Source: a virus (taxonomy: Duplodnaviria > Heunggongvirae > Uroviricota > Caudoviricetes). Taken from it: DNA of 64,000 nt. The notes beneath the pieces are model-generated. The model saw nothing but the letters and a program-made list of their open reading frames with translations. It was not told the origin of the DNA and made no database searches. The DNA lies in the IMG/VR virus record IMGVR_UViG_2706796742_000001, positions 1 through 64,000 of that record, one strand, 5' to 3'. Made by a program: the position numbers and the translations under genes. Below, piece by piece: positions 5,330 through 32,193 of the stretch; the stretch's first letter is position 1; each line of letters opens with the position of its first letter.

Positions 5330-6214
5330 ATGAAGCCGATGTTCAAATATCTTGGTGGTAAAACAAGAATATTAAAAGAGTATGAGCGTTTAGGTGTCTT
5401 TCCAGACAACTGTAAAAACTTCTATGACCTGTTTTCAGGTGGTGGTTCAGTAGCTATCTGGGCTTATAACAGATACCCAGAGGCAAAAGTGTTTATTAAT
5501 GAGATAAATAAACATATTATAGGTCTTTACACAACTTTCAGAAATGACTATGAAAACTTCATGGAAGAGTTTGAGTACTTATCAAAGAGGTACTTAGCCT
5601 TACCTATGCAGGAAGAGTATGCCGTGAAAGGCCAGCGTCATAACCGTCTACGCTATAAGATGTATTACAGTGTAAGAGAGGAACTTCTTTTGCTTGGTGA
5701 AGAAGGAGCATATGACTACAGGTACTATGCCAGACAGTTTTTCCTTCAAAAATTAAGTTTTGGTGGTGTATGGCAGACTACTAAAGAGATGAAAGGTCAC
5801 TATGCAACACCTTGTGGGTATTTGCTGGAAGAAGAGATTTTCTTCACAAAAACTAAAGAATCACTATCCGAGTTTTACAGTTTTATCACCGATGAAAGGG
5901 TAATACTTAGCAGTGAACCTTATGACAGGGTTGACATAAAACATGGAGAAGGCACAGTTATTTACTGTGACCCCCCATATATCAACACCAACCAGAAATA
6001 TGGTGCAAAGTTTGATATTGAGATGTCTGTAAAATTATGCAAAGATATGATTTCTTGGGGGGAGTTAGGCTCTAAAGTTTTGATGTCAAACTCTCAGTGG
6101 GATGGATGGGCAAACCTAATTCCTGAAAATTTTAACTTGACAGAGGTTAGCCATTCATACACAATACATGCACAGAGAAGCAAAGATATTAACGAAGTAA
6201 TTATTCACAACTAA
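5330..6214 (+). CDS. dam: DNA N6-adenine methyltransferase, Dam family
   Basis: Dam-like N-terminus FKYLGGK, SAM-binding DLFSGGGS, catalytic DPPY motif. Confidence 0.7.
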   Translation: MKPMFKYLGGKTRILKEYERLGVFPDNCKNFYDLFSGGGSVAIWAYNRYPEAKVFINEINKHIIGLYTTFRNDYENFMEEFEYLSKRYLALPMQEEYAVKGQRHNRLRYKMYYSVREELLLLGEEGAYDYRYYARQFFLQKLSFGGVWQTTKEMKGHYATPCGYLLEEEIFFTKTKESLSEFYSFITDERVILSSEPYDRVDIKHGEGTVIYCDPPYINTNQKYGAKFDIEMSVKLCKDMISWGELGSKVLMSNSQWDGWANLIPENFNLTEVSHSYTIHAQRSKDINEVIIHN

Positions 6215-6225
6215 GGTATCAAGTT

Positions 6226-7038
6226 ATGGCAAACAGCATCAATGTAGCACTGAATGGTAAGGTTGTTAAAATTCACACTAAGATTATCAGTGTCGAGGAT
6301 TTCCTTAATGAAAAACGTTACAAAGAAAACCCTCGTCAACGAAATACACTTAAGCGTCTGAAAAGCAAACACCTTAATGGTGACGTATCACCAGACCAAA
6401 CAGTAGTCCATGTGGCTAAGTTCGGTAGTTCACTGTTCATCATTGATGGTCACTCACGTCGAGAGGCATGGAAAGTTGGTAACCTGACACGACCAGAAAA
6501 CTTGATTGCAGTTATATACCATGTGAACTCCATATTGGATGTCACAGATTTGTACACTCATTTTGACTCTGAGTTAGCAAGAGAAAAACCTTCAGAAGTT
6601 TATTACGGAAATATGAAGATGATTTCTTTCAACCCAGAGTCAGAACTGATGAAAGCATCTTGGGCAACTGCTATTAAGTATGTTGCTGCATACTACGGTG
6701 TACAACAGGTATCTAACACTGAAACAGTTAAATACCTTAATGACTTTAAAAATGAGCTGGAACAAATTGATTCTCTTGAAGTACAGCTTAAAGGTGTAGT
6801 AAACGCAAAACGGAAATATTCTTCTGGGATTCGCGCAGCAATGTTAATTACTCTACGCCTATATGGTGATGCTGCATTTTCCTTTTGGGAAGACTATAAT
6901 GACTACTGTGAAGGTATGTCTAACAAATATGTTACAGAGTTATACCAACTGGCATTACAAGCTGGTCGCGGAGCACAGGCTGATAAGTTGTTGATGAATC
7001 AAGTGATTTCACTTGTCAACTATTACAGTCAAGAATAA
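6226..7038 (+). CDS. ParB-like nuclease-domain protein
   Basis: ParB/DUF262-type motif IIDGHSRREAW in the N-terminal half; 270-aa ORF; terminator hairpin downstream. Confidence 0.45.
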   Translation: MANSINVALNGKVVKIHTKIISVEDFLNEKRYKENPRQRNTLKRLKSKHLNGDVSPDQTVVHVAKFGSSLFIIDGHSRREAWKVGNLTRPENLIAVIYHVNSILDVTDLYTHFDSELAREKPSEVYYGNMKMISFNPESELMKASWATAIKYVAAYYGVQQVSNTETVKYLNDFKNELEQIDSLEVQLKGVVNAKRKYSSGIRAAMLITLRLYGDAAFSFWEDYNDYCEGMSNKYVTELYQLALQAGRGAQADKLLMNQVISLVNYYSQE

Positions 7039-8585: not shown

Positions 8586-9371
8586 ATGGGTATTGTAAAA
8601 ATTATCAATGGTGATATCTTTGCCGCATTTGATAAAAGTAAGTTTGATGTCATTGGTCATGGCTGTAACTGTATGAATTTCATGGGTGCAGGTATTGCAG
8701 CAACTATTTCTAAGCGTTATCCAAAAGTATATGATACTGATACAGAAGTTTACCTGTTTGCAGGTGGTATTCGCCACAAACCATGTGAAAACCTACTAGG
8801 TAATTTCTCTGTAACACGCTTAAAACAAGGCCGTGTAGCTAACCTTTACACCCAACTTCATACTGGTAAAGATGCCCGATACAGTGCTTTAGAGTCATCT
8901 TTGAAGCAACTTAACAGATACTGTGAAGTTAATAAGTTGAAGAAAGTTGGTTTACCTATGATTGGTGCAGGTATCGGTGGACTAGACCCTCAAGCCGTCA
9001 CAGTTATCATTAATCAGGTGATGAAGAGCGTAGATGTTTACCTGTATGTCTACGAGACAGAGATGTACAACGAGTTACACTCAGGTTGGAAGAACTATTG
9101 CGAACCGGAATACTTTGCAGGTGTAGTAACGTTCACAGACAATACAGTTACCCTCTTCAGACGAAGAAAAGGTAAGATACATCAAAGTAACCCTCCGGTT
9201 GAAAAGATGTCCCTAAGTAACGCTCTAGTTACCCACCTGTCGAAGAGCAATCACAGAATTGCCGTGACATTTGGTAGCGATGCAGACACCTACATCTATG
9301 CAAGAACTGATGAGGATATCGAGACAGTTTTCTCATCACCGGAAGTTACCTTCTTAGACGCAAAGAACTAA
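8586..9371 (+). CDS. macro-domain protein (ADP-ribose binding or hydrolase-like) with C-terminal extension
   Basis: N-terminal pattern GDIF...DVIGHGCNCMNFMGAGIA and later LPMIGAGIGG resemble macro-domain glycine motifs. Confidence 0.5.
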   Translation: MGIVKIINGDIFAAFDKSKFDVIGHGCNCMNFMGAGIAATISKRYPKVYDTDTEVYLFAGGIRHKPCENLLGNFSVTRLKQGRVANLYTQLHTGKDARYSALESSLKQLNRYCEVNKLKKVGLPMIGAGIGGLDPQAVTVIINQVMKSVDVYLYVYETEMYNELHSGWKNYCEPEYFAGVVTFTDNTVTLFRRRKGKIHQSNPPVEKMSLSNALVTHLSKSNHRIAVTFGSDADTYIYARTDEDIETVFSSPEVTFLDAKN

Positions 9372-15719: not shown

Positions 15720-15757
15720 TCAACGCAGCGGGGCTAAATAGCCCCAGATACCTTTAA

Positions 15758-15783
15758 AGCCCCTTTATATGGGGCTTTTTTAC
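15758..15783 (+). terminator. rho-independent terminator closing the plus-strand early block
   Basis: AGCCCC-TTTATAT-GGGGCT followed by TTTTTT. Confidence 0.6.
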
Positions 15784-15785
15784 GT

Positions 15786-17369
15786 CCTATCAAATCCCTT
15801 TCCTTTCCCTTTCCAGAATCTATCCCATACCTTAAAAGGCAATAACTCTATAGCTTACTCTATAGCCCCTTATCAAATTAACTTAAATATAAGCCCATAA
15901 CCCGAAAGGGAAGGGCAACCATTTAAACGCTCTATAAAGCCCTATAACAGCCTTATCAACCCAACTTAAGGGATTGCATTACCTCACCCTTAAAAACCCT
16001 TTATAAAGCTTCTTAGAGCCTTAAAAGAGCCTTAAAAGAATCTTATAAGGGTGTAAGCTTTATCATCTCGTTAGTATCTAGTGAACTACTAGAAAGGGCT
16101 TGATAATACTTAAAAGGTATGCTATGGAAAGCTTAAAAGAGGCTATAAAGTTACGTAAATGCTAGCCCCCTTAACATTTTCTTAACAATTTCTTAACAAT
16201 CCCTACATAGTTATGCTTGTTAGTAACTTGTTAGCCCCTTGTTAAATCTCTGTTAAAACCACGTAAAAGCCTTGTAAGAGCCTTTGGCATAGCCTTTAAA
16301 GCCCCTGAAAAGCCCTATAAAGAGCCTTCTATACAGTTGGGGTGCAATTACTAGGGAGAGACTAAAAGGAGCTTATAAGGGGCTATAAAGGGCTTTTAAA
16401 AGGGCTGTTTAAAAGGTCACTAAGAGAGAAAGGGAACGATAAGAAAAGAGAAGTTGTGTTTGTTAACAACCACTGTGCCCATGTTAACAGCTTGTTAAAA
16501 AGATTAAACACTTGTTAGGAACTTGTTAATTATCTTAACAAAATAACCCTTTAAAATTAACTTGTTAGCTCCTGTTAGTCATCTGTTAAGCATCCGTAAA
16601 GACTATTAAGCACTTGTTAGAAAACTGTTACCCTCTTGTTAAAACTGTTAAGAATCTGTTAATACCTCTGAAGAGATGTTAAAAGGTTGTAAGAACTGTT
16701 AAGAGATTGTTAATGATATTTTAAAATTCTGCAAAGGGGATGTTAAGGGGATGTTAAGGGCTACCAAGCAGATATACATCATGAGGTAGATTCTACCGAA
16801 TCAACTCTACAGATATTTTTGAGTTCCTTCAAAGACCCTAAAAAATGACTTGATAGTCCTATTTTATAAAAATTTTAAAATTCTGAATAATTACCTATAC
16901 AGTCTTTTAAAAATACAGGCATAAACAGGCTTATAAGATACCTTGTTAATACCGTGTTAGACCTTGTGAGATAAGGTCTGTAAAGATATTCCTGTTAAGT
17001 TTGTTAAAACAGTCTATATAGAGGCTTAGTAATACCCAGTGAACACCTATAGAGGGTAACATAGCTAACCTAGAGATTAAGAGGTGTATAGGGGCTTCTA
17101 AGAGGCTATAGAGGGATGGTTAAGGTGATTGTATAGGTTGTTAAGAAGACTTGTTAGAAGAGTGTTTAGAAGGGCTATACAGAGGTGCTATTAAGACCAC
17201 TAGATAGATACTAAGATACTATATAGTACTATATAACTATATATAGAGAGTAAGCTTAAGAAGGATGTTAAGAAGGTTAGATATTTTTATTCACATATGA
17301 TGGTGACCCAGAGGTTGGGACAACCGATAAAATTTTATAAAAATTATAAATTTCGTAAAATTTACTCAA
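15786..17369. repeat. 1.6-kb ORF-free region densely packed with short degenerate repeats, between convergent terminators
   Basis: No ORF of 60 aa or more in any frame; sub-blocks of CCTTAAAAG/CTTATAAG/CTATAAAG (about 15790-16400), YTGTTAR such as CTTGTTAG and CTGTTAAG with at least 18 copies (about 16440-16760), and TATAG/GTTAAG (about 16980-17280). Confidence 0.7.
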
Positions 17370-17400
17370 TAAAAAGCCCCCAAATAAGGAGGCTCTTAAG
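17370..17400 (-). terminator. probable rho-independent terminator closing the minus-strand block
   Basis: On minus strand AGCCTCC-TTATTTG-GGGGCT followed by TTTTT. Confidence 0.45.
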
Positions 17401-17405
17401 ATATT

Positions 17406-17999
17406 TTAAATCAGTGTTTCCAGAACTGTCTTCAGTGATGACTTGGTTGTCTGATAAAAATGAGTAAATCCATTGTTGTTATCAAATATCTGCATCATGA
17501 TATCATCTCCCTTGATTGGGTACACTCGGATATCATAGTGGAACCCATTAAAGACAGCAGAACCATTACAGAATGCACTAAAGTCATCCACTGAGATATA
17601 CTCTTCATGACCTGTGATTTTTATACAAACACCTTTACTCGGTCTCTTAGGGTTGATATCTTCCATCACAGACATACTCTGTCCACCAAGAGATACCATA
17701 GTGACCACTTTACGGTTCTTCTGTCTAAAGTACATTTTAACTTTCTGCAAAGTGTCTTCATAGAACGGATAAGACTTCTCTACAAAGATTCCTTCAAGTG
17801 GCTCTTTACCGTTTACAATACCTCTGGTATGACGTACTGCAAAGATAATTTGTTGGAGCCAGTCAAGATTTTCTTCGGAGAGTGCTTCCCGAATATCATT
17901 CCAGTCAAGGACTAGGTAGTTGCCTTCAACTTCTTTTAAGTTATCTTTTTCCATAGCTATCATACCATTATCGTAAAACTTGGTAATCTGGTACTGCAA
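17406..17999 (-). CDS. hypothetical protein
   Basis: 197-aa ORF, first of a tightly packed minus-strand series. Confidence 0.5.
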   Translation of the reverse strand: MQYQITKFYDNGMIAMEKDNLKEVEGNYLVLDWNDIREALSEENLDWLQQIIFAVRHTRGIVNGKEPLEGIFVEKSYPFYEDTLQKVKMYFRQKNRKVVTMVSLGGQSMSVMEDINPKRPSKGVCIKITGHEEYISVDDFSAFCNGSAVFNGFHYDIRVYPIKGDDIMMQIFDNNNGFTHFYQTTKSSLKTVLETLI

Positions 18000-22346: not shown

Positions 22347-22811
22347 TTACTTTGGATATACACTGTCAAGATAAATGTCAGCTTCCATTCTACGTCTGTT
22401 TTTCAGGCCGTTTGAAGTGACCTTCTTACCCTTGACTGTGACCTTGTTCCACCACTGCATAGCTTCTGCACAACCTACCTTATTACCAGCATTGTGGCGC
22501 TTGATAAATGTAGAATCCTGCATAGCTGTGATACCGATGTTGTATGTTTCACTTACAAGTGCATCGAATTCATTCTGAGAAGTTGGAACCTTGATAGCTT
22601 TATTCACTACTGCAACAAACTTCTCAACATCTGCAAGAAGATACTGTTCAGCTTGCTCGGCAGTGATTTTCATACCCATCTTAACAGGTTTTCCGTCAAT
22701 ACGGATTGTACCATACCCAATTGTTGGGATTCCGGCAGAGTCTTCGTAAGCCTCTAACTTCAGACCTTCGAAGAACTTAATAGCCTCTAAACCTTTTCTT
22801 GAGAGTTGCAT
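22347..22811 (-). CDS. endolysin, T4-lysozyme-like (GH24)
   Basis: Motif EGLKLEAYEDSAGIPTIGYGT with catalytic Glu/Asp spacing typical of T4-type lysozymes; terminator downstream on minus strand. Confidence 0.7.
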   Translation of the reverse strand: MQLSRKGLEAIKFFEGLKLEAYEDSAGIPTIGYGTIRIDGKPVKMGMKITAEQAEQYLLADVEKFVAVVNKAIKVPTSQNEFDALVSETYNIGITAMQDSTFIKRHNAGNKVGCAEAMQWWNKVTVKGKKVTSNGLKNRRRMEADIYLDSVYPK

Positions 22812-23443
22812 TATGCCTCCCCTGCTGGGTTAACTGTAACTGTTGCCGCATTAGATGTTACAGAGCCACCTGCACCAGTAACTACACAGGTGTAGCTTCC
22901 TGCATCAGCAGCAGTTGCACCTTCTTTGGTGTAAGTTGCAGAAGTGGCACTAGGGATGTCCTCACCATCTTTCTTCCACTGATAACCAGTGGCATTAGAC
23001 GCAACAACACTTAGAGTAAGCGTTCCACCTTCATTGACTGTTTGGTTTGTTGGTTGCTGAGTGATTGATGGTGGTGTGATGGCATCTTTCAACTTAGCAT
23101 TCAGCATTGAGAACGGTTTAACTCTTGCCAGCCATTCACAGTAAATTGTGTCAACATCTTTACCGTTGATGATTGCATACTGTAAATCCATGAAGAAATC
23201 AGAAGTCCTCATTTGAGCACCAATGCTGTAAAGAAGTTCATCACTGAAAGGAACTTTGTAGTCTGGTTTGTAGTCAAACTTCTCAACCTCTGCAATATCA
23301 GCTTCAGGCCAATACGAACTATAGGTAAGTGGTAAAATAGCCTCTTGATATGTTCTAAAATCATATCTCTTACCAGCCTTTACGTTTGCAACAAAACCTT
23401 TTACAAACTCTTTGAAGTCTGGGTAAGTCTTTGCTTTAATCAT
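22811..23443 (-). CDS. protein with C-terminal Ig-like (Big_2-type) domain
   Basis: C-terminal stretch TLTLSVVASNATGYQWKKDG...GSYTCVVTGAGGSVTSNAATVTV has the Ig-like strand pattern. Confidence 0.45.
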   Translation of the reverse strand: MIKAKTYPDFKEFVKGFVANVKAGKRYDFRTYQEAILPLTYSSYWPEADIAEVEKFDYKPDYKVPFSDELLYSIGAQMRTSDFFMDLQYAIINGKDVDTIYCEWLARVKPFSMLNAKLKDAITPPSITQQPTNQTVNEGGTLTLSVVASNATGYQWKKDGEDIPSATSATYTKEGATAADAGSYTCVVTGAGGSVTSNAATVTVNPAGEA

Positions 23444-23635: not shown

Positions 23636-24226
23636 TTAAGCTTTGGTCTTAAGTAGGTTCTTAAGTTTTTTGAGATTCATGCTCTCGTCAAACTTAAAAC
23701 CAAATCCATTGACATAATCAATGAACTCGGATTTCTTACTAAGTGATAGCGCGTAACTCATATCGAAGTTATTACTTGTTTCTGCGTCTGGACTAGAGTT
23801 CACATCAAATGAAATCTCTGTAGGCTCTTGCTTGCTACTTCTCATATTATCAATCAATAGACAGGTATAGTTAGCTGGATAGAAGTTAACACTCCCGTCA
23901 ACATACCCATACTTATTATTATGAATAAGGTTTGAAAATACCTTCAGAAATGTTTCTGAGTCGTGGCAGACAAGTTTGAATTGACTGCTTTCACCAAGAG
24001 CTACTAAAGAGTAAGGACTTTCACTATCAATGTCATAGTTTGGATTTGATGTTGTAACCGTTACACGCATCAGGTTATTGGCAATAGTCTTCTGCTTGAA
24101 AGAATTTGGAACATAGTGAAGACCTCTATCACACTGATTAACTAGCTCTTTCAATAGGTCATTTGCATATGGTGAATTAATTGATACAGAGCCATCACTA
24201 TTATAATTAAAACTTACTGTTAACAT
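23636..24226 (-). CDS. hypothetical protein
   Basis: 196-aa ORF. Confidence 0.5.
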   Translation of the reverse strand: MLTVSFNYNSDGSVSINSPYANDLLKELVNQCDRGLHYVPNSFKQKTIANNLMRVTVTTSNPNYDIDSESPYSLVALGESSQFKLVCHDSETFLKVFSNLIHNNKYGYVDGSVNFYPANYTCLLIDNMRSSKQEPTEISFDVNSSPDAETSNNFDMSYALSLSKKSEFIDYVNGFGFKFDESMNLKKLKNLLKTKA

Positions 24227-24453
24227 TTTTCAGTTCTCCTGCGATTTATGATTTTGCTGCAATAGAGAAACGAAGTAAACTCACTGGAAGAAACCATTAA
24301 GTGTTGTTCACTAGATTGAGCCATTGCCCTGAAATACATTCCAGTCAAAGCATCGTAGTGACTATTCTTTCCAATTGAGGTTATATAGCCATGACTCTTT
24401 GCAGTTTTATATAAATCTATAATATCTGCGATTTCTAATTGGGAACTACACAT
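24220..24453 (-). CDS. hypothetical protein
   Basis: 77-aa ORF. Confidence 0.4.
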   Translation of the reverse strand: MCSSQLEIADIIDLYKTAKSHGYITSIGKNSHYDALTGMYFRAMAQSSEQHLMVSSSEFTSFLYCSKIINRRRTEKC

Positions 24454-24617
24454 AGATAATCCTCTTGTCTTCTGTAATTTTGAAAGAACAGGTACAGACC
24501 AATTTCAGAGGATGAATAGTAGAGTAACTCTACCCTTTTTGATTCCTTACAGTGATTGGTATTTTTACCTTTCTTCGGGTTGTTTGATTTTCTCATTAAG
24601 TCTCCTTTGTAGAACAA
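24435..24617 (-). CDS. hypothetical protein (basic)
   Basis: 60-aa ORF, first gene of the leftward block. Confidence 0.35.
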   Translation of the reverse strand: MFYKGDLMRKSNNPKKGKNTNHCKESKRVELLYYSSSEIGLYLFFQNYRRQEDYLCVVPN

Positions 24618-24845
24618 GGCAGACCTACAGCTTTAAGTAAGATGGTACAGTAATCCATACAACAAGTCAAGAACTATTGCAAGTTAAAAAAGTTGTTGAC
24701 AAAGGACTTGACAAGGTGTAGGCTTATAAATACTTAGAAGATAACTTAAAAGGTTCCTCTAAAAAGGCTATTTAAACAGATATCTTTCTGGATATCTATC
24801 TTTTATCTTAAAAGCCTTTTAAGAGGTCTTATAAGAGGCATACCA

Positions 24846-25217
24846 ATGAAAAACAGAACAAACAAAGGCCAGTTTAAAAAAGGCCAGTCTGGAAACCCAT
24901 CTGGAAGACCAAAAGGCTCTCGTAACAAAAGCTCACTCGTAAAAGCTCAACTGACCATTGATAATTCTGCTGAGTTTGCTGCAAAGTTGTTTGAGGCGAT
25001 TGTTACAAGGGACGCTGCTAAGCTTGCAGAGTTCGGTTTGACGACTGACGATGTAAACCTGAAGTCAATGATGGAAGCTGGTAAAACTATCATGACCCAC
25101 TCAGCAGGTGAGATGAAAGCAATTGCAGCAGACACTAAGAAGACTCCTGATAACGGTGGTCAGTCTCAGACAGATAACAAACCAACGTTCTCTGCTGTTG
25201 CAACCCTCAAAAAATAA
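24846..25217 (+). CDS. hypothetical protein with conserved basic Gly-rich N-terminal motif
   Basis: Motif KGQSGNPSGRPKG at the N-terminus. Confidence 0.45.
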   Translation: MKNRTNKGQFKKGQSGNPSGRPKGSRNKSSLVKAQLTIDNSAEFAAKLFEAIVTRDAAKLAEFGLTTDDVNLKSMMEAGKTIMTHSAGEMKAIAADTKKTPDNGGQSQTDNKPTFSAVATLKK

Positions 25218-26879: not shown

Positions 26880-26956
26880 CTCTGTTTAGCTCAGCTTGGT
26901 AGAGCGTTCCGTTTGGGGCGGTAAGGCCGGAGGTTCAAGTCCTCCAACAGAGACCA
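26880..26956 (+). tRNA. tRNA-Pro (anticodon TGG)
   Basis: Hand-folded cloverleaf: acceptor CTCTGTT/AACAGAG, T-arm GGAGG-TTCAAGT-CCTCC, anticodon loop TTTGGGG, CCA encoded. Confidence 0.6.
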
Positions 26957-26963
26957 AATTAAT

Positions 26964-27040
26964 GTTCCAGTAGACAAAATGGTATAGTCACCACTCTTTC
27001 AAAGTGGATATTTGAGGGTTCAAATCCCTTCTGGAACGCC
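26964..27040 (+). tRNA. tRNA-Glu (anticodon TTC)
   Basis: Acceptor GTTCCAG/CTGGAAC, anticodon stem CCACT/AGTGG, loop CTTTCAA, T-arm GAGGG-TTCAAAT-CCCTT. Confidence 0.65.
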
Positions 27041-27044
27041 AGTT

Positions 27045-27122
27045 TTGACAGAAGACCAATTACAGCAAACTTAATCTTATACATCTGAAGGTAAATCGGA
27101 CAAAGAAGAGATTTGGTCTGGT
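27045..27122 (+). other. conserved inter-tRNA element E1
   Basis: 5' box CAGAAGACCAATTACAGCAAACTTAA and 3' TTTGGTCTGG able to pair with the 5' AGACCAAA; no T-loop. Confidence 0.5.
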
Positions 27123-27131
27123 CATTAAGAA

Positions 27132-27208
27132 TTGCGGGTATAGAGAAAGGGCGTCTCACATGTCTCATTAGCATGGTATCGGCAGGTTCGACTCCTGCAC
27201 CCGCCTCC
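27132..27208 (+). tRNA. tRNA with CAT anticodon (Met, initiator or Ile-lysidine type); 1-72 mismatch
   Basis: T-arm GCAGG-TTCGACT-CCTGC, anticodon stem CATGT/GCATG, loop CTCATTA; U1-C72 unpaired. Confidence 0.45.
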
Positions 27209-27211
27209 AAT

Positions 27212-27277
27212 TTTGCAGAAGACCGTATGCAGCAATAAACTACTTTTTGCGGATAAAAGAAAAAAACACGGTCTGGC
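27212..27277 (+). other. conserved inter-tRNA element E2
   Basis: CAGAAGACCGTATGCAGCAATAAACT ... CGGTCTGG. Confidence 0.5.
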
Positions 27278-27286
27278 AATGTATTA

Positions 27287-27363
27287 AGGTTAGGAAGCAC
27301 ATAAGGTATGTGCGGTCGCCTGTTAAGCGAATGGCACAGGGTTCGAATCCCTGACTAACCGCC
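27287..27363 (+). tRNA. tRNA-Asn (anticodon GTT)
   Basis: D-stem GCAC/GTGC, anticodon loop CTGTTAA, T-arm CAGGG-TTCGAAT-CCCTG. Confidence 0.65.
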
Positions 27364-27432
27364 AAATTTAGGAGAGAAGCGATTGCTCACCGATTTGTAA
27401 GGTGCAAGTCCTTAGCCTGAATAGAAATTAAA

Positions 27433-27520
27433 TGTGTCGTTATCCCGTAGATGGTAGCGGTGGGGACTGTAAATCCCTTGTCATTGAGACTCGGTAGGTT
27501 CGACTCCTACACGGCACACC
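27433..27520 (+). tRNA. tRNA-Tyr (anticodon GTA), long variable arm
   Basis: 88 nt; acceptor GTGTCGT/ACGGCAC, anticodon loop CTGTAAA, T-arm GTAGG-TTCGACT-CCTAC. Confidence 0.6.
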
Positions 27521-27525
27521 AATAA

Positions 27526-27603
27526 AGGCTATGTAGTTTAATAGGGTTAAAATACTCCCCTGTCACGGGAGATGATGTGAGTTCAAGTCTCATCGTAGCC
27601 GCC
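27526..27603 (+). tRNA. tRNA-Asp (anticodon GTC)
   Basis: Anticodon stem CTCCC/GGGAG, loop CTGTCAC, T-arm GTGAG-TTCAAGT-CTCAT. Confidence 0.6.
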
Positions 27604-27635
27604 AATTTTGAGAGGGCTATTTAGCCCCTCCCTTA

Positions 27636-27668
27636 AAGGGTTCTTACGAGTATCCTTTAAAGGGGCAG
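27636..27668 (+). other. conserved hairpin element, copy 1
   Basis: TTAAAGGGTTCTTACGAGTATCCTTTAA (7-bp stem, 14-nt loop). Confidence 0.45.
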
Positions 27669-27741
27669 AAGACCAAATTCAGCAAGTTACTTAAAATTTC
27701 AAGCCAATTCAATTTTGAAAAAATTTAAAACTTGGTCTGGC
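27662..27741 (+). other. conserved inter-tRNA element E3
   Basis: CAGAAGACCAAATTCAGCAAGTTACTTAA ... TTGGTCTGG. Confidence 0.5.
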
Positions 27742-27750
27742 TCAACAAAT

Positions 27751-27835
27751 TTACAGAAGACCGTTTACAGCAAAACTTAAACAATCTATTTCTCGGTAAA
27801 GAAAAGGCGAAGGTTCGATTCCCTCCACTTCTACC
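27751..27835 (+). other. conserved element E4 with tRNA-like 3' half
   Basis: CAGAAGACCGTTTACAGCAAAACTTAA then GAAGG-TTCGATT-CCCTC T-arm-like hairpin and CCA; only 5 acceptor pairs and no convincing D or anticodon arm. Confidence 0.4.
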
Positions 27836-27839
27836 AATA

Positions 27840-27916
27840 TGGTTCAGTCGCAGATAAGGTAATGCAAGGGTTTCATAAGCCCTATGAATGTGGGTTCGAA
27901 TCCCATCTGAACCTCC
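27840..27916 (+). tRNA. tRNA-Met (anticodon CAT)
   Basis: Acceptor GGTTCAG/CTGAACC, anticodon loop TTCATAA with three G-C pairs in stem, T-arm GTGGG-TTCGAAT-CCCAT. Confidence 0.6.
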
Positions 27917-27918
27917 AA

Positions 27919-27993
27919 TTGTGGGTTAGCATAAATGGTAATGCAAACGGCTGATAACCGTTAGAAGAGGGTTCGATACCCTCACCTACAACC
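27919..27993 (+). tRNA. tRNA-Ile (anticodon GAT)
   Basis: Anticodon stem AACGG/CCGTT, loop CTGATAA, T-arm GAGGG-TTCGATA-CCCTC. Confidence 0.65.
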
Positions 27994-28008
27994 AATTTTA
28001 ATAAAGTT

Positions 28009-28037
28009 GTTGACATTGAGATGTGACCACTTTATAG
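28009..28037 (+). promoter_or_regulatory. strong internal sigma70-like promoter in tRNA cluster
   Basis: TTGACA-N17-TATAGT preceded by A/T-rich tract. Confidence 0.6.
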
Positions 28038-28330
28038 TAACTAAAATACTTCATAATATGTATAATTCAAACACCAATACATGAGCATTAGACGTAATGC
28101 AATGTGGGGAAATTTGTTGTACATATTCTGAATAGTTTTCGTTGCGTAGCGTCTATTTTGCAAATTTAAAATAAATGCAAACGACAATGTTTTTCTGGCA
28201 GTAGCTTGATAGGCTAAACACCAGTGAGGTCTTCCAATCCCTCATCAAAGAATTTGGCGTACTAGCCCACGGTATGATTAATAAGGTGGGCATCTTTAAG
28301 GGCTTTCTAAGAGAGTCTTTAAAGATTAAT

Positions 28331-28407
28331 GCACCCTTAGTTCAACTGGACAGAACAAATGACTTCTAATCATTAGGTTACAGGTTCGAATCCTGTAGGG
28401 TGTGCCA
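28331..28407 (+). tRNA. tRNA-Arg (anticodon TCT)
   Basis: D-stem GTTC/GAAC, anticodon stem AATGA/TCATT, loop CTTCTAA, T-arm ACAGG-TTCGAAT-CCTGT. Confidence 0.7.
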
Positions 28408-28549
28408 AATAGTTAGCAGATTGCTTAGACGACCTTATCGGGTCTCCGTGTAGGGAGGTGGTCTGTATCTCATGTTTTCCAGAACATGTAAATAATCTGA
28501 GAAGGGGCTTTACAGTGTTGTGAAAATACGGTAAGCTTCGAATTATAGT

Positions 28550-28632
28550 GTGGGACGATGTTAAGACTCTAAGGCATGAGCAACGGCCTCCAAAACCGTT
28601 TCAAAGTGGTTCAACTCCTCCGTCCCATGCCA
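28550..28632 (+). tRNA. atypical tRNA-like gene, possibly tRNA-Trp (anticodon CCA) with expanded D region
   Basis: 7-bp acceptor GTGGGAC/GTCCCAT plus CCA; candidate loop CTCCAAA; T-arm weak; D region about 7 nt too long. Confidence 0.3.
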
Positions 28633-28645
28633 AAGTCTTATTAGG

Positions 28646-28733
28646 GGTAGGTAGCGGCTAATGGTAGCCAAACAGTCTTGAAAACTGTTGCCACTGTAGA
28701 GATACGGTGAGGGTTCGACTCCTTTACTTACCG
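28646..28733 (+). tRNA. tRNA-Ser (anticodon TGA), long variable arm
   Basis: Anticodon stem ACAGT/ACTGT, loop CTTGAAA, long variable arm, discriminator G; CCA not fully encoded. Confidence 0.6.
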
Positions 28734-28987
28734 CCTAATAAGATTTAGACCGTCATGCTCGCTCGCATTTTCGGTTTATCCCTCGTGTGTTGTCGTACAC
28801 AAGTAAAGCACCTAGTAGGTGTCACGGAGAAGAGATAATATCAAGCTCTCCAAAGGTTCTAGTCACCGGATTAAACAAGACTATGCAAAGACCTATTTAG
28901 GTCTTTTTAGAGAACTTCTAAGGTTATTACAGCTTGTTGTGGAACCTTGTTGCTTAGGTTCTTAGAAGTTCTCTAAAAAGATTTAAT

Positions 28988-29064
28988 GCACCTATAGCCC
29001 AACTGGTAGAGGCAGCAGACTTAGAATCTGCTCAGTGTGAGTTCGAATCTCTCTAGGTGTACCA
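28988..29064 (+). tRNA. tRNA with anticodon TAG (Leu by code) but short variable loop
   Basis: Leu-like D-arm GCC-CAACTGGTAGA-GGC, anticodon stem GCAGA/TCTGC, loop CTTAGAA, 5-nt variable loop, discriminator A. Confidence 0.45.
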
Positions 29065-29071
29065 AATTAAT

Positions 29072-29147
29072 GCAGGTGTAGCAAAATGGTTATGCGGCTG
29101 ACTCTTAATCAGTAAGACGATGGGTTCAATTCCCTCCACCTGTACCA
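29072..29147 (+). tRNA. tRNA-Lys (anticodon CTT)
   Basis: Anticodon stem GCTGA/TCAGT, loop CTCTTAA; T-arm has two mismatches. Confidence 0.5.
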
Positions 29148-29153
29148 GACATT

Positions 29154-29229
29154 GGGGATGTAGTTTACATGGTTAAAACATAAGTTTTGCAAACTTAAGT
29201 ACAGGGTTCAATTCCCTGCTTCTCCACCA
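29154..29229 (+). tRNA. tRNA-Ala (anticodon TGC)
   Basis: G3-U70 wobble pair in acceptor (Ala identity), D-stem GTTT/AAAC, loop TTTGCAA, T-arm CAGGG-TTCAATT-CCCTG. Confidence 0.7.
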
Positions 29230-29235
29230 ATTAGT

Positions 29236-29310
29236 GCATCCATAGTTTAAACGGGAAAATTACAGTCTTCCAAACTGAGGTTGAGGGTTCGATTCCCTCT
29301 GGATGCTCCA
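29236..29310 (+). tRNA. tRNA-Gly (anticodon TCC)
   Basis: Acceptor GCATCCA/TGGATGC, loop CTTCCAA, T-arm GAGGG-TTCGATT-CCCTC. Confidence 0.6.
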
Positions 29311-29317
29311 AATTAAT

Positions 29318-29394
29318 GCTGCTTTCGTATAATTGGCTATTACACATCCATTGTAAGGATGGAAATGCAGGTTCGAGTCCTGTGAGCAGCACCA
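29318..29394 (+). tRNA. tRNA-Thr (anticodon TGT)
   Basis: Anticodon stem CATCC/GGATG, loop ATTGTAA, T-arm GCAGG-TTCGAGT-CCTGT. Confidence 0.65.
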
Positions 29395-29489
29395 ATTCAG
29401 AGGTCAAGTGAAAGACCGCTGGTGTCAACTGAAGACCGTAACAAATTCCACGGAGTTGAGTTAGCGGCACAACTTCAGACCTCTTTCAC
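29395..29489 (+). other. divergent copy E5 of the inter-tRNA element
   Basis: CTGAAGACCGTAACAAATTCCA; flanking inverted repeat CAGAGGTC ... GACCTCT. Confidence 0.35.
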
Positions 29490-29564
29490 ACTCGCTTAGT
29501 TTATATGGTAAAACATCACCCTTACAAGATGAAGAAAAAGGTTCAAGTCCTTTAGTGAGTACCA
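29490..29564 (+). tRNA. tRNA-Val (anticodon TAC)
   Basis: D-stem GTTT/AAAC, loop CTTACAA, T-arm AAAGG-TTCAAGT-CCTTT; one C-A mismatch in anticodon stem. Confidence 0.55.
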
Positions 29565-29565
29565 T

Positions 29566-29643
29566 GTTCCAGTATCCCAATTGGCAGAGGATGCAAGCTC
29601 AAACCTTGTATTAGTGACGGTTCGAATCCGTCTTGGAACACCA
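29566..29643 (+). tRNA. tRNA with anticodon CAA (Leu by code) but short variable loop
   Basis: Leu-like D-arm TCC-CAATTGGCAGA-GGA, anticodon stem GCAAG/CTTGT, loop CTCAAAC, 6-nt variable loop, T-arm GACGG-TTCGAAT-CCGTC. Confidence 0.45.
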
Positions 29644-29659
29644 ATTTTAGGAGAACACT

Positions 29660-29767
29660 ATGAGTGATAAATCAATTGCAAAAAAGTTTATAGCGTCATT
29701 CAAAAATAGGCGTAAAAACAAAGATTGTGAAAATCTGTATGGTGTTCTTGTAGGTAAGCAGGATTAG
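29660..29767 (+). CDS. possible small basic protein (35 aa) inside the tRNA cluster
   Basis: AGGAG RBS 6 nt before ATG; ORF MSDKSIAKKFIASFKNRRKNKDCENLYGVLVGKQD; 3' end overlaps start of a tRNA. Confidence 0.25.
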   Translation: MSDKSIAKKFIASFKNRRKNKDCENLYGVLVGKQD

Positions 29768-29833
29768 TTCAAATGGATAGAGCAGCAGTCTACGAAGCTG
29801 TTAATAGGGGTTCGAATCCCTTATCCTGCGCCA
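29758..29833 (+). tRNA. tRNA-Arg (anticodon ACG)
   Basis: Acceptor GCAGGAT/ATCCTGC, loop CTACGAA, T-arm AGGGG-TTCGAAT-CCCTT. Confidence 0.65.
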
Positions 29834-29852
29834 ATTTAAAGAGGCTATTTAG

Positions 29853-30410
29853 ATGAGATATTTGAAGTATGCTTCATGGATTTTCCTAGCTTTGCTAGAA
29901 CCATTTGCAGCAATCCTAGCAGTCATCTTAGCACCTTTTGTAGTTCCATTCTACAGTGAGAAGAAAGGGCACTTACCTTTCGGCTTCAGATGGATGGAGA
30001 CATATGACAACCCAATTGATGGTGATAAAGGTCATGTTGAACGATGGGCTAAGATTAGAAAGGTTGGTAAGCTTGGTGTCTATATGCAGAGAGTCGGTTG
30101 GCTCTGGAGAAACAAAGCTTATAACTTCTCTTACCATGTGTTAGGAAGAGATGTAAAAGATGTTACTAAGTGGAAAGGTAATATCAATGTAAGTTCTGAC
30201 CCTGAAGATAATCAGACAGGTTATCTCCTAATGTGGAACAGCAATGCTTGGGGATTATTTGCTTTTGTACCATCAATTAAAGTCTTTGGTAAACAGTTTT
30301 ACTGGAGAATTTATATTGGATGGAAACTTAAAAGTGTTGTCCCAGAAGAAAGAGCATTCTCAAGGGAAAGAGTTATGTTGGCATTCTTTATTCATCCACT
30401 AAGAAAATAA
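29853..30410 (+). CDS. membrane protein embedded in tRNA cluster
   Basis: N-terminal hydrophobic stretch WIFLALLEPFAAILAVILAPFVVPF; RBS agagg; flanked by tRNAs. Confidence 0.5.
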   Translation: MRYLKYASWIFLALLEPFAAILAVILAPFVVPFYSEKKGHLPFGFRWMETYDNPIDGDKGHVERWAKIRKVGKLGVYMQRVGWLWRNKAYNFSYHVLGRDVKDVTKWKGNINVSSDPEDNQTGYLLMWNSNAWGLFAFVPSIKVFGKQFYWRIYIGWKLKSVVPEERAFSRERVMLAFFIHPLRK

Positions 30411-30418
30411 AGATTTAA

Positions 30419-30494
30419 AGGGGATTAGTTTACAAGGTTAAAACCTCGGTCTTTGAAATCGAAGAAGTTGGTTCAATTCCAACATCCCCCGCCA
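30419..30494 (+). tRNA. tRNA-Gln (anticodon TTG)
   Basis: D-stem GTTT/AAAC, loop CTTTGAA, T-arm GTTGG-TTCAATT-CCAAC; unpaired 1-72 position. Confidence 0.6.
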
Positions 30495-30496
30495 AT

Positions 30497-30575
30497 GCTC
30501 CATTACTCCAATTGGCAGAGAGGCCAGACTTAAAATCTGTGTTATGTATCGGTTCGAATCCGATATGGAGTACCA
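30497..30575 (+). tRNA. tRNA with anticodon TAA (Leu by code) but short variable loop
   Basis: Leu-like D-arm CTC-CAATTGGCAGA-GAG, loop CTTAAAA, 7-nt variable loop, T-arm ATCGG-TTCGAAT-CCGAT, discriminator A. Confidence 0.45.
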
Positions 30576-30580
30576 AATTT

Positions 30581-30656
30581 AGCGGTATAGCATAACTGGC
30601 AATGCAGCAGTCTCTGAAGCTGTCTTATTAAGGTTCAAATCCTTATGCCGCTGCCA
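30581..30656 (+). tRNA. tRNA-Gln (anticodon CTG)
   Basis: Anticodon stem GCAGT/GCTGT, loop CTCTGAA, T-arm TAAGG-TTCAAAT-CCTTA, weak A1-U72 pair. Confidence 0.6.
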
Positions 30657-30657
30657 C

Positions 30658-30690
30658 TTCTAAGGGTTCTTACGAGAGTCCTTAAATGTG
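30658..30690 (+). other. conserved hairpin element, copy 2
   Basis: CTAAGGGTTCTTACGAGAGTCCTTAAA, same loop core GGGTTCTTACGAG as copy 1. Confidence 0.45.
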
Positions 30691-30763
30691 GCCTTATCAT
30701 AAATGGTAATGACCCATGCTGTGAACATGGTCTATACGGGTTCAAATCCCGTAGGTCACCCCA
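30688..30763 (+). tRNA. tRNA-His (anticodon GTG)
   Basis: Anticodon stem CCATG/CATGG, loop CTGTGAA, T-arm ACGGG-TTCAAAT-CCCGT, discriminator C. Confidence 0.65.
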
Positions 30764-30768
30764 ATTTA

Positions 30769-30843
30769 TAGTCCAAGTAGCTTATATGGTTAAAGCGCGT
30801 GTCTGAAAAACATGAGAAGAGGGTTCAAATCCCACTGGACTAC
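30769..30843 (+). tRNA. tRNA-Phe (anticodon GAA)
   Basis: Acceptor TAGTCCA/TGGACTA, D-stem GCTT/AAGC, anticodon stem CGTGT/ACATG, loop CTGAAAA; two extra nt before D-stem. Confidence 0.5.
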
Positions 30844-30861
30844 CAATTTCAAAGGTGCTTA

Positions 30862-31596
30862 ATGAAAGAGATGACAGAACAAGGTAAGGAGATTTTTAAT
30901 CTCTTAAAAACCGGTAGAGGGTTTTCTAATCCCCTTATTACTGGTGCAGCAGTTCTCGGTGGAACCGTAGCTGCCTCTACATCACTTGTAAGCTCTATTA
31001 GCTCTGTAACAGACCCTACAATAAAGGATAAGCTTATTGCTGCTGGACTTACAACAGTTCTACTTAGCAGCTTTACAACGAGTCTGACAAGCACTACATC
31101 AACCACTAAAACACTGACAGATTACGGTCAAAAGTCCATTGATGAGTTTTCATCACGTATGCAGGTAGCAAAAGGATATTCTAATGCTATGGGTGCAGCA
31201 GGAGAGCAAGTCGGTTGTACACCTTTTAGTGGTATTATGGGTGTTGCTACAGAATATGGTCAAAAAGCTATTGACACAATTAACAGTGCACTAGATAGTG
31301 TTAACGGTGTGTTAAGTGACTTACAGGATGCTATTGACGAAGGTCTTGATACTATTTCTGATTTAGCTAACCAAGCTGTTAGCAAGATTAATGAAGGTAT
31401 CTCGAAGATTACAGCTTATGCAGACGAAGTTGTGCAGATGATTGAAGAAGAAGCTGCCCTTATTGCAGAGTACCTTAAAACGAATATCAATGGGTTCTTA
31501 GCAGGTATCTTACCAGACTGGTTTGATGATGCTTGTAAAACTGGTGTAATTGACACTATTGCAACACCAGAAATGAAGAACGCATTACAGAAATAA
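30862..31596 (+). CDS. hypothetical Ser/Thr-rich protein
   Basis: Start moved from track ATG 30799 (which overlaps a tRNA) to in-frame ATG at 30862 with aaagg RBS. Confidence 0.45.
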   Translation: MKEMTEQGKEIFNLLKTGRGFSNPLITGAAVLGGTVAASTSLVSSISSVTDPTIKDKLIAAGLTTVLLSSFTTSLTSTTSTTKTLTDYGQKSIDEFSSRMQVAKGYSNAMGAAGEQVGCTPFSGIMGVATEYGQKAIDTINSALDSVNGVLSDLQDAIDEGLDTISDLANQAVSKINEGISKITAYADEVVQMIEEEAALIAEYLKTNINGFLAGILPDWFDDACKTGVIDTIATPEMKNALQK

Positions 31597-31597
31597 T

Positions 31598-31690
31598 GGA
31601 AGATTAACCCTAAAAGGTAAGGGAGCAGTTTGCTAAACTGCCAGTAGCTGAGAAATCGGTGTACCAGTTCAAGTCTGGTATCTTCCTCCA
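31598..31690 (+). tRNA. tRNA-Ser (anticodon GCT), long variable arm
   Basis: 93 nt; acceptor GGAAGAT/ATCTTCC, anticodon stem GCAGT/ACTGC, loop TTGCTAA, T-arm ACCAG-TTCAAGT-CTGGT, CCA encoded. Confidence 0.55.
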
Positions 31691-31694
31691 ATTT

Positions 31695-31770
31695 GAATCC
31701 GTGACAGAAATGGCTATGTGCCTGTCTGCAAAACAGGTTTATAAGGGTTCGAGTCCCTTCGGATTCTCCA
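31695..31770 (+). tRNA. tRNA-Cys (anticodon GCA)
   Basis: Acceptor GAATCCG/CGGATTC, anticodon stem CCTGT/ACAGG, loop CTGCAAA, T-arm AAGGG-TTCGAGT-CCCTT, discriminator T. Confidence 0.65.
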
Positions 31771-31992: not shown

Positions 31993-32193
31993 ATGAGCGA
32001 AAACATCTATAAAGAACTTTATGAAGCTAATAAGAAGCTAGAATTTATGCAGAACACTATCATGGCAATTGCAGATAGATTGTCTGTAGCAACAGGTATT
32101 GATATCAAAGAAGCCTCTATGGATGCACTTCTTGATGCTGTTGATGCAAAGTTCGAAGTTAAGAAAGAAGAGACTGCTACAGACTCTGAATAA
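31993..32193 (+). CDS. hypothetical small protein preceding terminase
   Basis: 66-aa acidic ORF directly upstream of the large terminase gene. Confidence 0.4.
   Translation: MSENIYKELYEANKKLEFMQNTIMAIADRLSVATGIDIKEASMDALLDAVDAKFEVKKEETATDSE

Follow-up and report, generated by a model that had tools for sequence, protein, structure and literature searches.

What does a 1.6-kb stretch of phage DNA do if it contains no gene? The question is raised by positions 15786-17369 (hereafter the field) in a window of viral DNA (Caudoviricetes), the window being the whole stretch of 64,000 nucleotides (nt) that was analysed, positions 1 to 64,000 of the IMG/VR record IMGVR_UViG_2706796742_000001; all coordinates below are window positions. 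The initial annotation, made from the sequence alone, described a repeat field between two converging transcription blocks and named four candidate roles for it: a replication origin or terminus, a binding-site array, a packaging site, or a long non-coding transcript. Here we propose that the field is very probably the region where the chromosome of a Felix O1-like myovirus ends (its concatemer junction), with a mechanism built on a terminal repeat and a phased array of short elements, because the terminal redundancy of related phages and the published repeat of phage UAB_Phi87 both map into it. Among the four roles, the packaging site thus came nearest to the truth, as the field holds the physical ends and the direct terminal repeat (DTR).

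Physical Ends and the Direct Terminal Repeat

Matches to the field were found in 255 phage records (80-90% identity), nearly all of them Felixounavirus or Mooglevirus, and the terminase-portal region of the window is 95-99% identical to 210 records. Felixounavirus and Mooglevirus are Felix O1-like myoviruses with genomes of ~86-90 kb. Position 1 of the window falls exactly on the ATG of a 763-amino acid (aa) open reading frame (ORF), and Felix O1-like genomes are conventionally opened at rIIA (PMC3185647). Judged by these matches, the record is a circularly permuted Felixounavirus genome that starts at rIIA, so that its own ends may differ from the physical ends of the virion DNA.

Where the ends lie can be read from the relatives. 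Exact terminal redundancies of 579, 613, and 651 base pairs (bp) are present in the deposited genomes of CRP22 (OQ708377.1), SPJ41 (ON868915.1), and NBEco005 (MN994499.1), respectively, and all three map to 16165-16765. Position 1 of the CRP22, H12, and NBEco005 records and the last base of the SPJ41 record correspond to 16165, and the same two window positions are ends in these four independent records. The authors of the H12 genome report DTRs detected by PhageTerm (PMC11737134). For UAB_Phi87, Bal31 digestion and run-off sequencing gave a DTR of 608 bp, and the Bal31 sensitivity of two specific fragments has been published (PMC4837284). Figure S1 of the same work prints this repeat as 5'-AACATTTTCTTAACAATT...GGGATGTTAAGGGCTACCAA-3'; its start (AACATTTTCTTAACA) and end (GGGCTACCAA) align to 16173-16767. 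The junction motifs of UAB_Phi87 are 614 bp apart, and the experimental ends are 8 nt (left) and 2 nt (right) off the ends of the deposited records, which accounts for the published length (614 - 8 + 2 = 608 bp). The printed supplement was used here instead of the UAB_Phi87 GenBank record, which starts in the tRNA cluster and was rejected as an end anchor. DTRs of similar kind were reported for vB_EcoM-Ro111lw (613 bp; PMC6454146), Pr103Blw (581 bp; PMC8303462), and, by PhageTerm, a Hafnia Kolesnikvirus (439 bp; PMC8928762), and the terminases of the Felix O1 group form a DTR cluster of their own (PMC4837284). The repeat_region features annotated in pinkbiff and ekra were considered as DTRs and discarded: they are short local repeats, and the ekra assembly breaks inside the field.

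In the relatives, identical sequence is found at both ends of the virion DNA and the cut sites are unique and sequence-specific. In the window the DTR (601 bp, 16165-16765) is present as a single copy, because an assembler collapses the two virion copies into one; numerous deposited assemblies start, stop, or break within the field. We regard it as highly likely that the terminal repeat and the genome ends of this phage lie in the field, by extension from its relatives.

Conserved Sequences at the Two Junctions

The left junction (16145-16190) reads ...GTTACGTAAATGCTA before and GCCCCCTTAACATTTTCTTAACA after the cut, with the end at 16165 according to the deposited records or at 16173 according to the UAB_Phi87 run-off sequence. 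It is near-invariant in 12 aligned genomes, including Mooglevirus, with 77% overall identity. The right junction (16735-16790) reads ...GGGGATGTTAAGGGGATGTTAAGGGCTACC before and AAGCAGATATACATCATGAGG after the cut, with the end at 16765 (records) or 16767 (run-off); here the 12 aligned genomes all have the same or almost the same sequence over ~36 bp across the cut (~16756-16791). The conserved span round each junction is ~30-36 bp. Read along the strand with its 3' end at the terminus, the sequence at either end closes with ...ATGTTAAGGG(GGC or CTACC)-3'. Such short inverted edges of the DTR fit the action of one enzyme on opposite strands at the two junctions.

The right junction is also what survives in a more distant comparison. 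In the Erwinia Kolesnikvirus vEam_S_24, the ~108 bases detectably shared with the field (BLAST) are all located at this junction, and the sequence AGATATACA, just outside the right cut, is retained. The terminal redundancy of vEam_S_24 is 442-444 bp and follows the same plan, with reverse elements on the left and forward elements on the right.

A Phased TGTTA Array Inside the Terminal Repeat

The initial annotation raised the question of whether the repeats of the field exceed what base composition would produce, and the motif counts are far above chance. The pentamer TGTTA occurs 29 times on the plus strand of the field against 2.9 expected from the rest of the window (~10-fold); CTATA occurs 16 times (1.1 expected), CT[AT]4AG (CTWWWWAG) 17 times (1.5 expected), and CTATANAG 11 times (0.1 expected). 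The repeats are also periodic. Base autocorrelation at a lag of 11 reaches z = 10.6 in 16165-16765 and z = 5.1 in the non-coding DNA to its left, the DNA to its right peaks at lags 10 and 12 (z = 4.5 each), and two control stretches of coding DNA have no comparable peak.

The DTR holds 25 TGTTA elements, 22 on the plus strand and three on the minus strand, and their arrangement follows the two junctions. The first elements inside the left junction are the three on the minus strand (16171-16199), placed 11 bp apart at 16172, 16183, and 16194 and pointing at the junction; the 12-genome alignment shows hardly any change in this trio. Orientation reverses near 16208, and four plus-strand elements follow at exactly 11-bp intervals (16217-16256; motif positions 16218, 16229, 16240, and 16251), a segment in which relatives vary by insertions or deletions (indels) of whole 11-bp units. 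The central ~200 bp (16257-16455) has no TGTTA and carries instead CTWWWWAG sites (16294, 16315, 16372, and 16383) flanked by GCC/GGC and mirrored around ~16345, with inverted repeats at 16308-16331/16374-16397 (I4, 79%) and 16293-16313/16371-16391 (I6, 86%). The main plus-strand array (16461-16757) then runs to the right edge, where its last two elements (16741 and 16752) point at the right junction. At least 18 copies of YTGTTAR had been noticed in 16440-16760, and the count of TGTTA at 16461-16752 is exactly 18. Spacings in the main array are mostly 11 bp and fall at 9-11, 20-21, or 31-39 bp; the elements stay in phase over 300 bp with a period of 10.3-10.4 bp (Rayleigh R = 0.83; 99.9th percentile of random positions 0.70). 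Since the phase is kept at ~10.3 bp, the TGTTA elements lie on one face of B-DNA.

The elements are also conserved as elements. In the 12-genome alignment the conservation of the TGTTA cores is 0.94 against 0.81 for the rest of the DTR (permutation p = 2e-4), and in Mooglevirus it is 0.88 against 0.67-0.69 elsewhere in the repeat. Three out of four DTR indels of at least 5 bp are 11, 22, or 23 bp long, which indicates that whole repeat units are gained or lost. By these measures of conservation the TGTTA elements are under purifying selection. The suggestion of a binding-site array is borne out to the extent that the field is a conserved array of binding-type repeats, and the TGTTA array is likely to be a protein-binding platform. 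Whether this putative platform serves to position the terminase is a proposal on which we are evenly divided.

A Non-coding Field Between Convergent Terminators

The longest ORF wholly inside the field encodes 43 aa, and a 56-aa ORF (17297-17467) straddles its right edge. The ORF listing therefore agrees with the claim that 15786-17369 contains no ORF of at least 60 codons, and this is indeed unusual here: only two out of 313 sliding windows are equally ORF-free, and both overlap the field. The description of the field as saturated with stop codons, on the other hand, did not hold. The six frames contain 270 stops against 272.9 +/- 8.3 in dinucleotide shuffles, and 33% of the shuffles likewise lack an open run of 60 codons; dinucleotide composition yields both the stop density and the missing 60-codon run.

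The convergent terminators that had been proposed as boundaries were found on both sides, each folding as a hairpin followed by a U-run with z = -3.2 against shuffles. On the left, two hairpins end the plus-strand gene block, one at 15730-15745 and the other an intrinsic terminator with its stem at 15756-15778 and a U-run to 15783 (RNA fold -25.7 kcal/mol; 0 of 200 shuffles fold as well). On the right, an intrinsic terminator on the minus strand (stem 17372-17397; pattern scan and RNA fold, -15.2 kcal/mol) ends the minus-strand block, the last gene of which lies at 17406-17999. Both terminators are annotated at matching places in AYO145A and Moogle, and the unannotated gap of ~1.6 kb between them is also present in AYO145A, Felix O1, Moogle, Sf17, and SUSP2.

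Across genera the field aligns over ~100% of its length, whereas the flanking genes align over only 28-51%. No relative in the four genera compared has conserved genes at this position, and most indels in the field are not multiples of three. Small coding sequences (CDSs) are annotated in the terminal repeat or flank of some relatives, are missing from the annotation of others, and are not conserved; we consider them probable annotation artefacts. Examples are the 25-53-aa 'hypothetical protein' CDSs in the equivalent of 16165-17369 in JN225449.1 (Phi87_32 to Phi87_34) and PP952733.1 (CDS0001, CDS0002). On the alignment evidence, the field is non-coding DNA under selection. Three repeat sub-blocks had originally been drawn within it; the natural division is a left flank (15786-16164), the terminal repeat (16165-16765), and a right flank (16766-17369).

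Sequences Flanking the Terminal Repeat

Both flanks are non-coding in all relatives. The left flank (379 bp), which in the virion would lie just inside the right-end copy of the DTR, is a CTWWWWAG array: it has eight CT[AT]4AG sites within quasi-palindromic CTTAAAAG, CTATAAAG, and CTTATAAG elements, often 11 bp apart. In the Erwinia phage the corresponding flank carries 11 copies of TTCTAA in place of CTWWWWAG, in a single orientation and 11-12 bp apart. The flank motif is therefore lineage-specific and the DTR motif is not.

The right flank (604 bp), just inside the left-end DTR copy in the virion, combines repeat arrays with a conserved core. Its arrays at ~16980-17280 consist of CTATAG-, CTATATAG-, and GTTAAG-type elements. 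Most of the flank is bracketed by a direct repeat (family D15), two plus-strand AT-rich boxes of 34 bp that are 82% identical, copy 1 (ATTTTATAAAAATTTTAAAATTCTGAATAATTAC) at 16861-16894 and copy 2 at 17332-17365, abutting the minus-strand terminator. The core (16840-17060) is 96-98% identical within the genus, compared to 81-92% for the neighbouring genes, and harbours TGTTA/TGTGA/TGTAA motifs at ~11-bp steps as well as a small hairpin, GACCTT...AAGGTC (~16960-16978). It is a candidate for either an origin element or the site recognised by the terminase.

A Model for the Chromosome Ends

The observations can be assembled into the following model. Convergent intrinsic terminators would shut transcription out of the junction. 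Replication and recombination would produce concatemers with one DTR copy between adjacent genomes, as homology to the relatives indicates. The T4-type large terminase (32200-33816; Pfam Terminase_6N and Terminase_6C), encoded together with a Mu-type portal, would cut at the two junctions, as their invariant sequences suggest. If the phage follows the T7 model, staggered nicks on opposite strands and strand-displacement synthesis would duplicate the DTR and leave one copy at each virion end. Coated with protein and bent, the TGTTA array would serve as a platform marking both cut sites and setting their positions, and it might have an additional role in regulating end-related steps such as recombination or replication. 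The platform is suggested because the geometry of the array matches that of head-to-tail OmpR/PhoB winged-helix proteins.

Several points weigh against this model. The ends of this phage are taken from relatives that are only 84-90% identical in the field, and the deposited records and the run-off sequence place the left end 8 nt apart, at 16165 and 16173, respectively. The TGTTA array is at most a putative target of the terminase, and searches that included Pfam matching of ~30 neighbouring proteins found no small terminase subunit or other DNA-binding protein. Finally, the cis packaging signal could be the right-flank core at 16840-17060, which is better conserved than the TGTTA array.

Candidate Proteins Binding the Array

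The protein that binds the putative platform may be either a phage protein or the host protein ArcA in its phosphorylated form (ArcA-P). It is quite possible, although we stop short of calling it probable, that a small terminase subunit or another phage DNA-binding protein coats the array head to tail and recruits the large terminase, with a merely convergent likeness to ArcA sites. Arrays of short repeats, such as the R sites of lambda cosB and the pacL/pacR boxes of SPP1, are the usual targets of small terminase subunits, and the DTR of T7 is likewise made of short repeats. The TGTTA array is exactly coextensive with the DTR, its elements face both cut sites, and the positions of the phage boxes outside the core do not fit ArcA. 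No small terminase is annotated in the Felix O1 group (PMC4837284), so that one remains to be found. A phage protein and its site would nevertheless be expected to drift together between genera, as the flank motifs do, and none of the ~30 neighbouring proteins that might supply the binder has a DNA-binding Pfam domain. A conserved 66-aa ORF (31993-32193, plus strand; phrog_4397) lies directly upstream of the large terminase gene and belongs to a family of unknown function; its product is too acidic for a DNA-binding subunit and was rejected as the small terminase. The DUF5681 protein (123 aa; 24846-25217, plus strand) is the product of the first plus-strand gene after the divergent region 24226-24846. 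At its N-terminus a basic motif, GxFKKGQSGNPxGRPKGSRN, is invariant and precedes helices; its 54 homologues are all unnamed. It might bind DNA or be considered for the small terminase; counting against it, it has no sequence match in PDB, and its AlphaFold model is of low confidence (predicted local distance difference test, pLDDT, 64.6; predicted template modelling score, pTM, 0.34) and too poor for a fold search.

The array also resembles the sites of ArcA-P, which consist of 10-bp direct-repeat elements (ATGTTAAAAA) with a TGTTA core, spaced 11 bp centre to centre and numbering two to five per site; binding is cooperative and bends the DNA, and a repeat shifted 1 bp further is not bound (PMC3798270, PMC4173790). 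We consider it a tentative and rather unlikely reading that host ArcA-P binds the TGTTA array as an architectural or regulatory cofactor at the chromosome ends and couples end steps to the redox state of the host. In its general form, which we hold to be just as doubtful, the DTR of Felixounavirus, Mooglevirus, Suspvirus, and Kolesnikvirus would be an ArcA-P super-array of ~25 elements, several-fold the size of the sites found by ChIP in E. coli (PMC3798270), with roles in terminase positioning, in the control of end recombination or replication, or in ArcA titration.

To score the sites, an ArcA matrix was built from 115 E. coli boxes (Table S3 of the ArcA study), among which the maximum is 21.5 bits; 9 bits corresponds to the lowest real box and 15 bits to the published genome-scan cut-off. 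The 601-bp DTR has 18 ArcA-type boxes at 9 bits or more, 11 at 12 or more, and seven at 15 or more, whereas at this last cut-off the flanks have none and the other 62.4 kb of the window three. Among 2000 dinucleotide shuffles of the DTR, the mean number of boxes of at least 15 bits is 0.06 and the maximum is two. Two overlapping boxes at the left edge, TTGTTAAGAAAATGTTAA and TTGTTAAGAAATTGTTAA, reach 22.7 and 22.5 bits, more than any of the 115 E. coli boxes. The 11 aligned relatives have six to nine boxes each in the DTR and none in the flanks, the DTR of the Erwinia phage has six with none in 4.1 kb of neighbouring DNA, and the pattern holds across four genera. The DTR contains 13 TGTTA direct-repeat pairs at 11 bp centre to centre, in runs of three, four, three, and five. 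Phages infecting E. coli, Salmonella, Shigella, Citrobacter, and Erwinia share one DTR motif despite a changing flank motif, and this constancy across host genera fits a conserved host protein. No ArcA/OmpR-family gene was found by tblastn in the window or in genuine Felixounavirus records with an ArcA probe 99.6% identical to Salmonella ArcA; a phage-encoded homologue was rejected, as the matches in phage collections are contigs of host DNA. There is also a precedent for ArcA as an accessory architectural protein, in Xer recombination at psi (bioRxiv 10.64898/2026.02.23.706985; PMC9113270).

Outside the TGTTA core, however, the likeness to ArcA sites fades. The non-core positions of 13 phage boxes score -1.8 on average against -2.6 for random sequence (z = 0.67) and +3.5 for the E. 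coli boxes; only the two left-edge boxes (+5.8 and +5.5) fit the non-core preference of ArcA. TGTTAG accounts for 24% of the phage elements against 3-4% of the ArcA boxes, and positions -2 and -1 often hold C. Felix O1-like phages grow well under aerobic conditions and are routinely propagated in this way; as ArcA is then mostly without its phosphate, an essential role of ArcA is unlikely. A scan of viral contigs for four TGTTA at 11 bp recovered Ounavirinae relatives and also unrelated environmental contigs with perfect 11-mer tandem arrays, so that other proteins may use a like geometry. In the IMG/VR loci L027, L049, L064, L090, L100, and L101, 5-12 TGTTA stand in perfect tandem with an 11-bp period in non-coding DNA; some of these arrays are at locus or contig ends, one is beside promoter-like sequence, and one forms a large inverted pair. 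The 11-bp TGTTA geometry may thus be widespread among phages. No paper linking arcA and Felix O1 was found in the searchable literature.

Other Readings of the Field

It is improbable that the field, or part of it, is also a replication origin in which the repeats act as iterons and the AT-rich boxes as unwinding elements. The phased iteron-like arrays, the two 34-bp D15 boxes, and the strongly conserved non-coding core at 16840-17060 would suit such a role. ArcA-P binds oriC and inhibits initiation in vitro, and T7 has secondary origins near its DNA ends; both facts count for the origin as well. Host-type origin signals were not seen: the field has a single DnaA box with one mismatch and no IHF (integration host factor) consensus, Fis-like patterns are like these absent or at chance level, and there is no recognisable initiator gene beside the field, where the adjoining genes belong to families without an assigned function. 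GC skew tracks the direction of transcription and is therefore uninformative on replication. The TGTTA array, moreover, ends precisely where the DTR does, a limit that suits a function at the chromosome ends better than an origin.

That the field, long, ORF-free, and conserved as it is, gives rise to small RNAs or a long non-coding RNA, consists of decayed genes, or is a centromere bound by the supposed ParB-like protein (6226-7038) can hardly be maintained, given that the best Rfam matches reach 19-25 bits against gathering scores of 34-79, that sigma-70-like sites are not enriched (12 against 7.5 +/- 2.9) and terminators face the field from both sides, that relatives in four genera have no protein-coding genes there and indels mostly ignore the reading frame, that the repeats are direct and not parS-like palindromes, and that searches of Pfam (E <= 10), PHROGs (phrog_2615, unknown function), and PDB sequences revealed no likeness of the protein to ParB.

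Other Features of the Genome

GATC is absent from the 64-kb window, where dinucleotide shuffles predict 180 +/- 14 sites, a complete avoidance of Dam/MboI-type sites; the phage nevertheless encodes a D12-class N6-adenine DNA methyltransferase (5330-6214; PF02086, E = 2.4e-23). Two further genes are unrelated to the field: a Macro-domain protein (PF01661, E = 1.7e-7) is encoded in the early block at 8586-9371 (plus strand), and an immunoglobulin-domain protein at 22811-23443 (minus strand), adjoining the lysozyme gene. A cluster of 25 tRNA genes occupies 26880-31770 on the plus strand, as is typical of Felix O1-like phages.

Significance

The field had been put forward as an undescribed element. 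DTRs of 581-613 bp have been published for the genus (PMC4837284, PMC6454146, PMC8303462); the terminal repeat as a kind of element is known, and one repeat sequence is already in print. As the terminus of a well-known genus, the field is therefore not to be counted as an unknown element. The phased TGTTA architecture inside the DTR appears undescribed: the searchable literature on these repeats gives their existence, length, or raw sequence only, and does not describe the 1.6-kb non-coding setting, the phased array, its orientation to both junctions, or its likeness to ArcA sites.

For annotation, we suggest that 16165-16765 be marked as a terminal repeat and that no small ORFs be called there, unlike in some deposited records. 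The field also shows how a short terminal repeat is organised in a phage that does not belong to the T7 group, with invariant junctions, outward-facing elements, indels of 11-bp units, and genus-specific flank motifs, and so provides a set of targets for studying how fixed ends arise in a myovirus that has a T4-type terminase but no recognised small subunit. If ArcA-P did prove to be the binder, it would be a new type of link, between the chromosome ends of a lytic phage and the redox sensing of its host, and would tie the phage life cycle to the oxygen or redox state of the gut host. Such a link would be relevant to the use of Felix O1-type phages for biocontrol of Salmonella and E. coli in the anaerobic gut.

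Comparison With Known Systems

The published DTRs of Felix O1-like phages (UAB_Phi87, Ro111lw, Pr103Blw, and the Hafnia Kolesnikvirus) have junction sequences identical or nearly identical to those of the field and a similar range of lengths, and they are the same element. Outside this group, the closest well-studied analogue, as far as the likeness goes, is the concatemer junction of T7, because short repeats fill the DTR of T7 and its flanks too. T7 and T3 share with the field a short non-permuted DTR which, together with its flanks, forms a non-coding field of 7-8-bp degenerate repeats. In bases 1-340 of T7 there are 11 copies of CCTAAAG with a period of 12-13 bp (autocorrelation at lag 13, z = 7.4), and on the right side CCTAAGG and CATAAAG, which resemble the CTTAAAAG/CTATAAAG elements of the flanks of the field. 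Duplication of the DTR during packaging, as in T7, is presumed for the field. The two systems differ in that the T7 DTR is 160 bp long and that of the field 601 bp; the repeat period of the field is 10.4-11 bp, the helical repeat, in place of 12-13 bp; and the field has a DTR-specific motif, TGTTA, that switches orientation near the left edge. Bases 1-400 of T7 have no ArcA-type box of 12 bits or more. The phage studied here, a myovirus, combines a T4-type large terminase with a Mu-type portal, and its transcription converges and stops before the junction, whereas the early promoters of T7 adjoin the left DTR. Neither a phage-type promoter nor a gene for a phage RNA polymerase was seen close to the junction, although no search was aimed at them.

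A host DNA-bending protein that organises a site cut by an element-specific enzyme also has models. IHF acts as a host architectural factor at lambda cosB, and ArcA does so with PepA at psi of pSC101; these systems rely on one or a few binding sites, compared to the ~25 elements of the field. The ArcA-P sites of icdA, astC, and acs (PMC3798270, PMC4173790) share with the array the TGTTA core, the direct repeats, the 11- or 22-bp spacing, and the runs of three to five elements. They differ from it in comprising two to five elements over 20-55 bp instead of ~25 over 600 bp, in being located at promoters and not in a phage terminal repeat, and in having the A/T preference of ArcA in their spacers, where the spacers of the field contain G and C.

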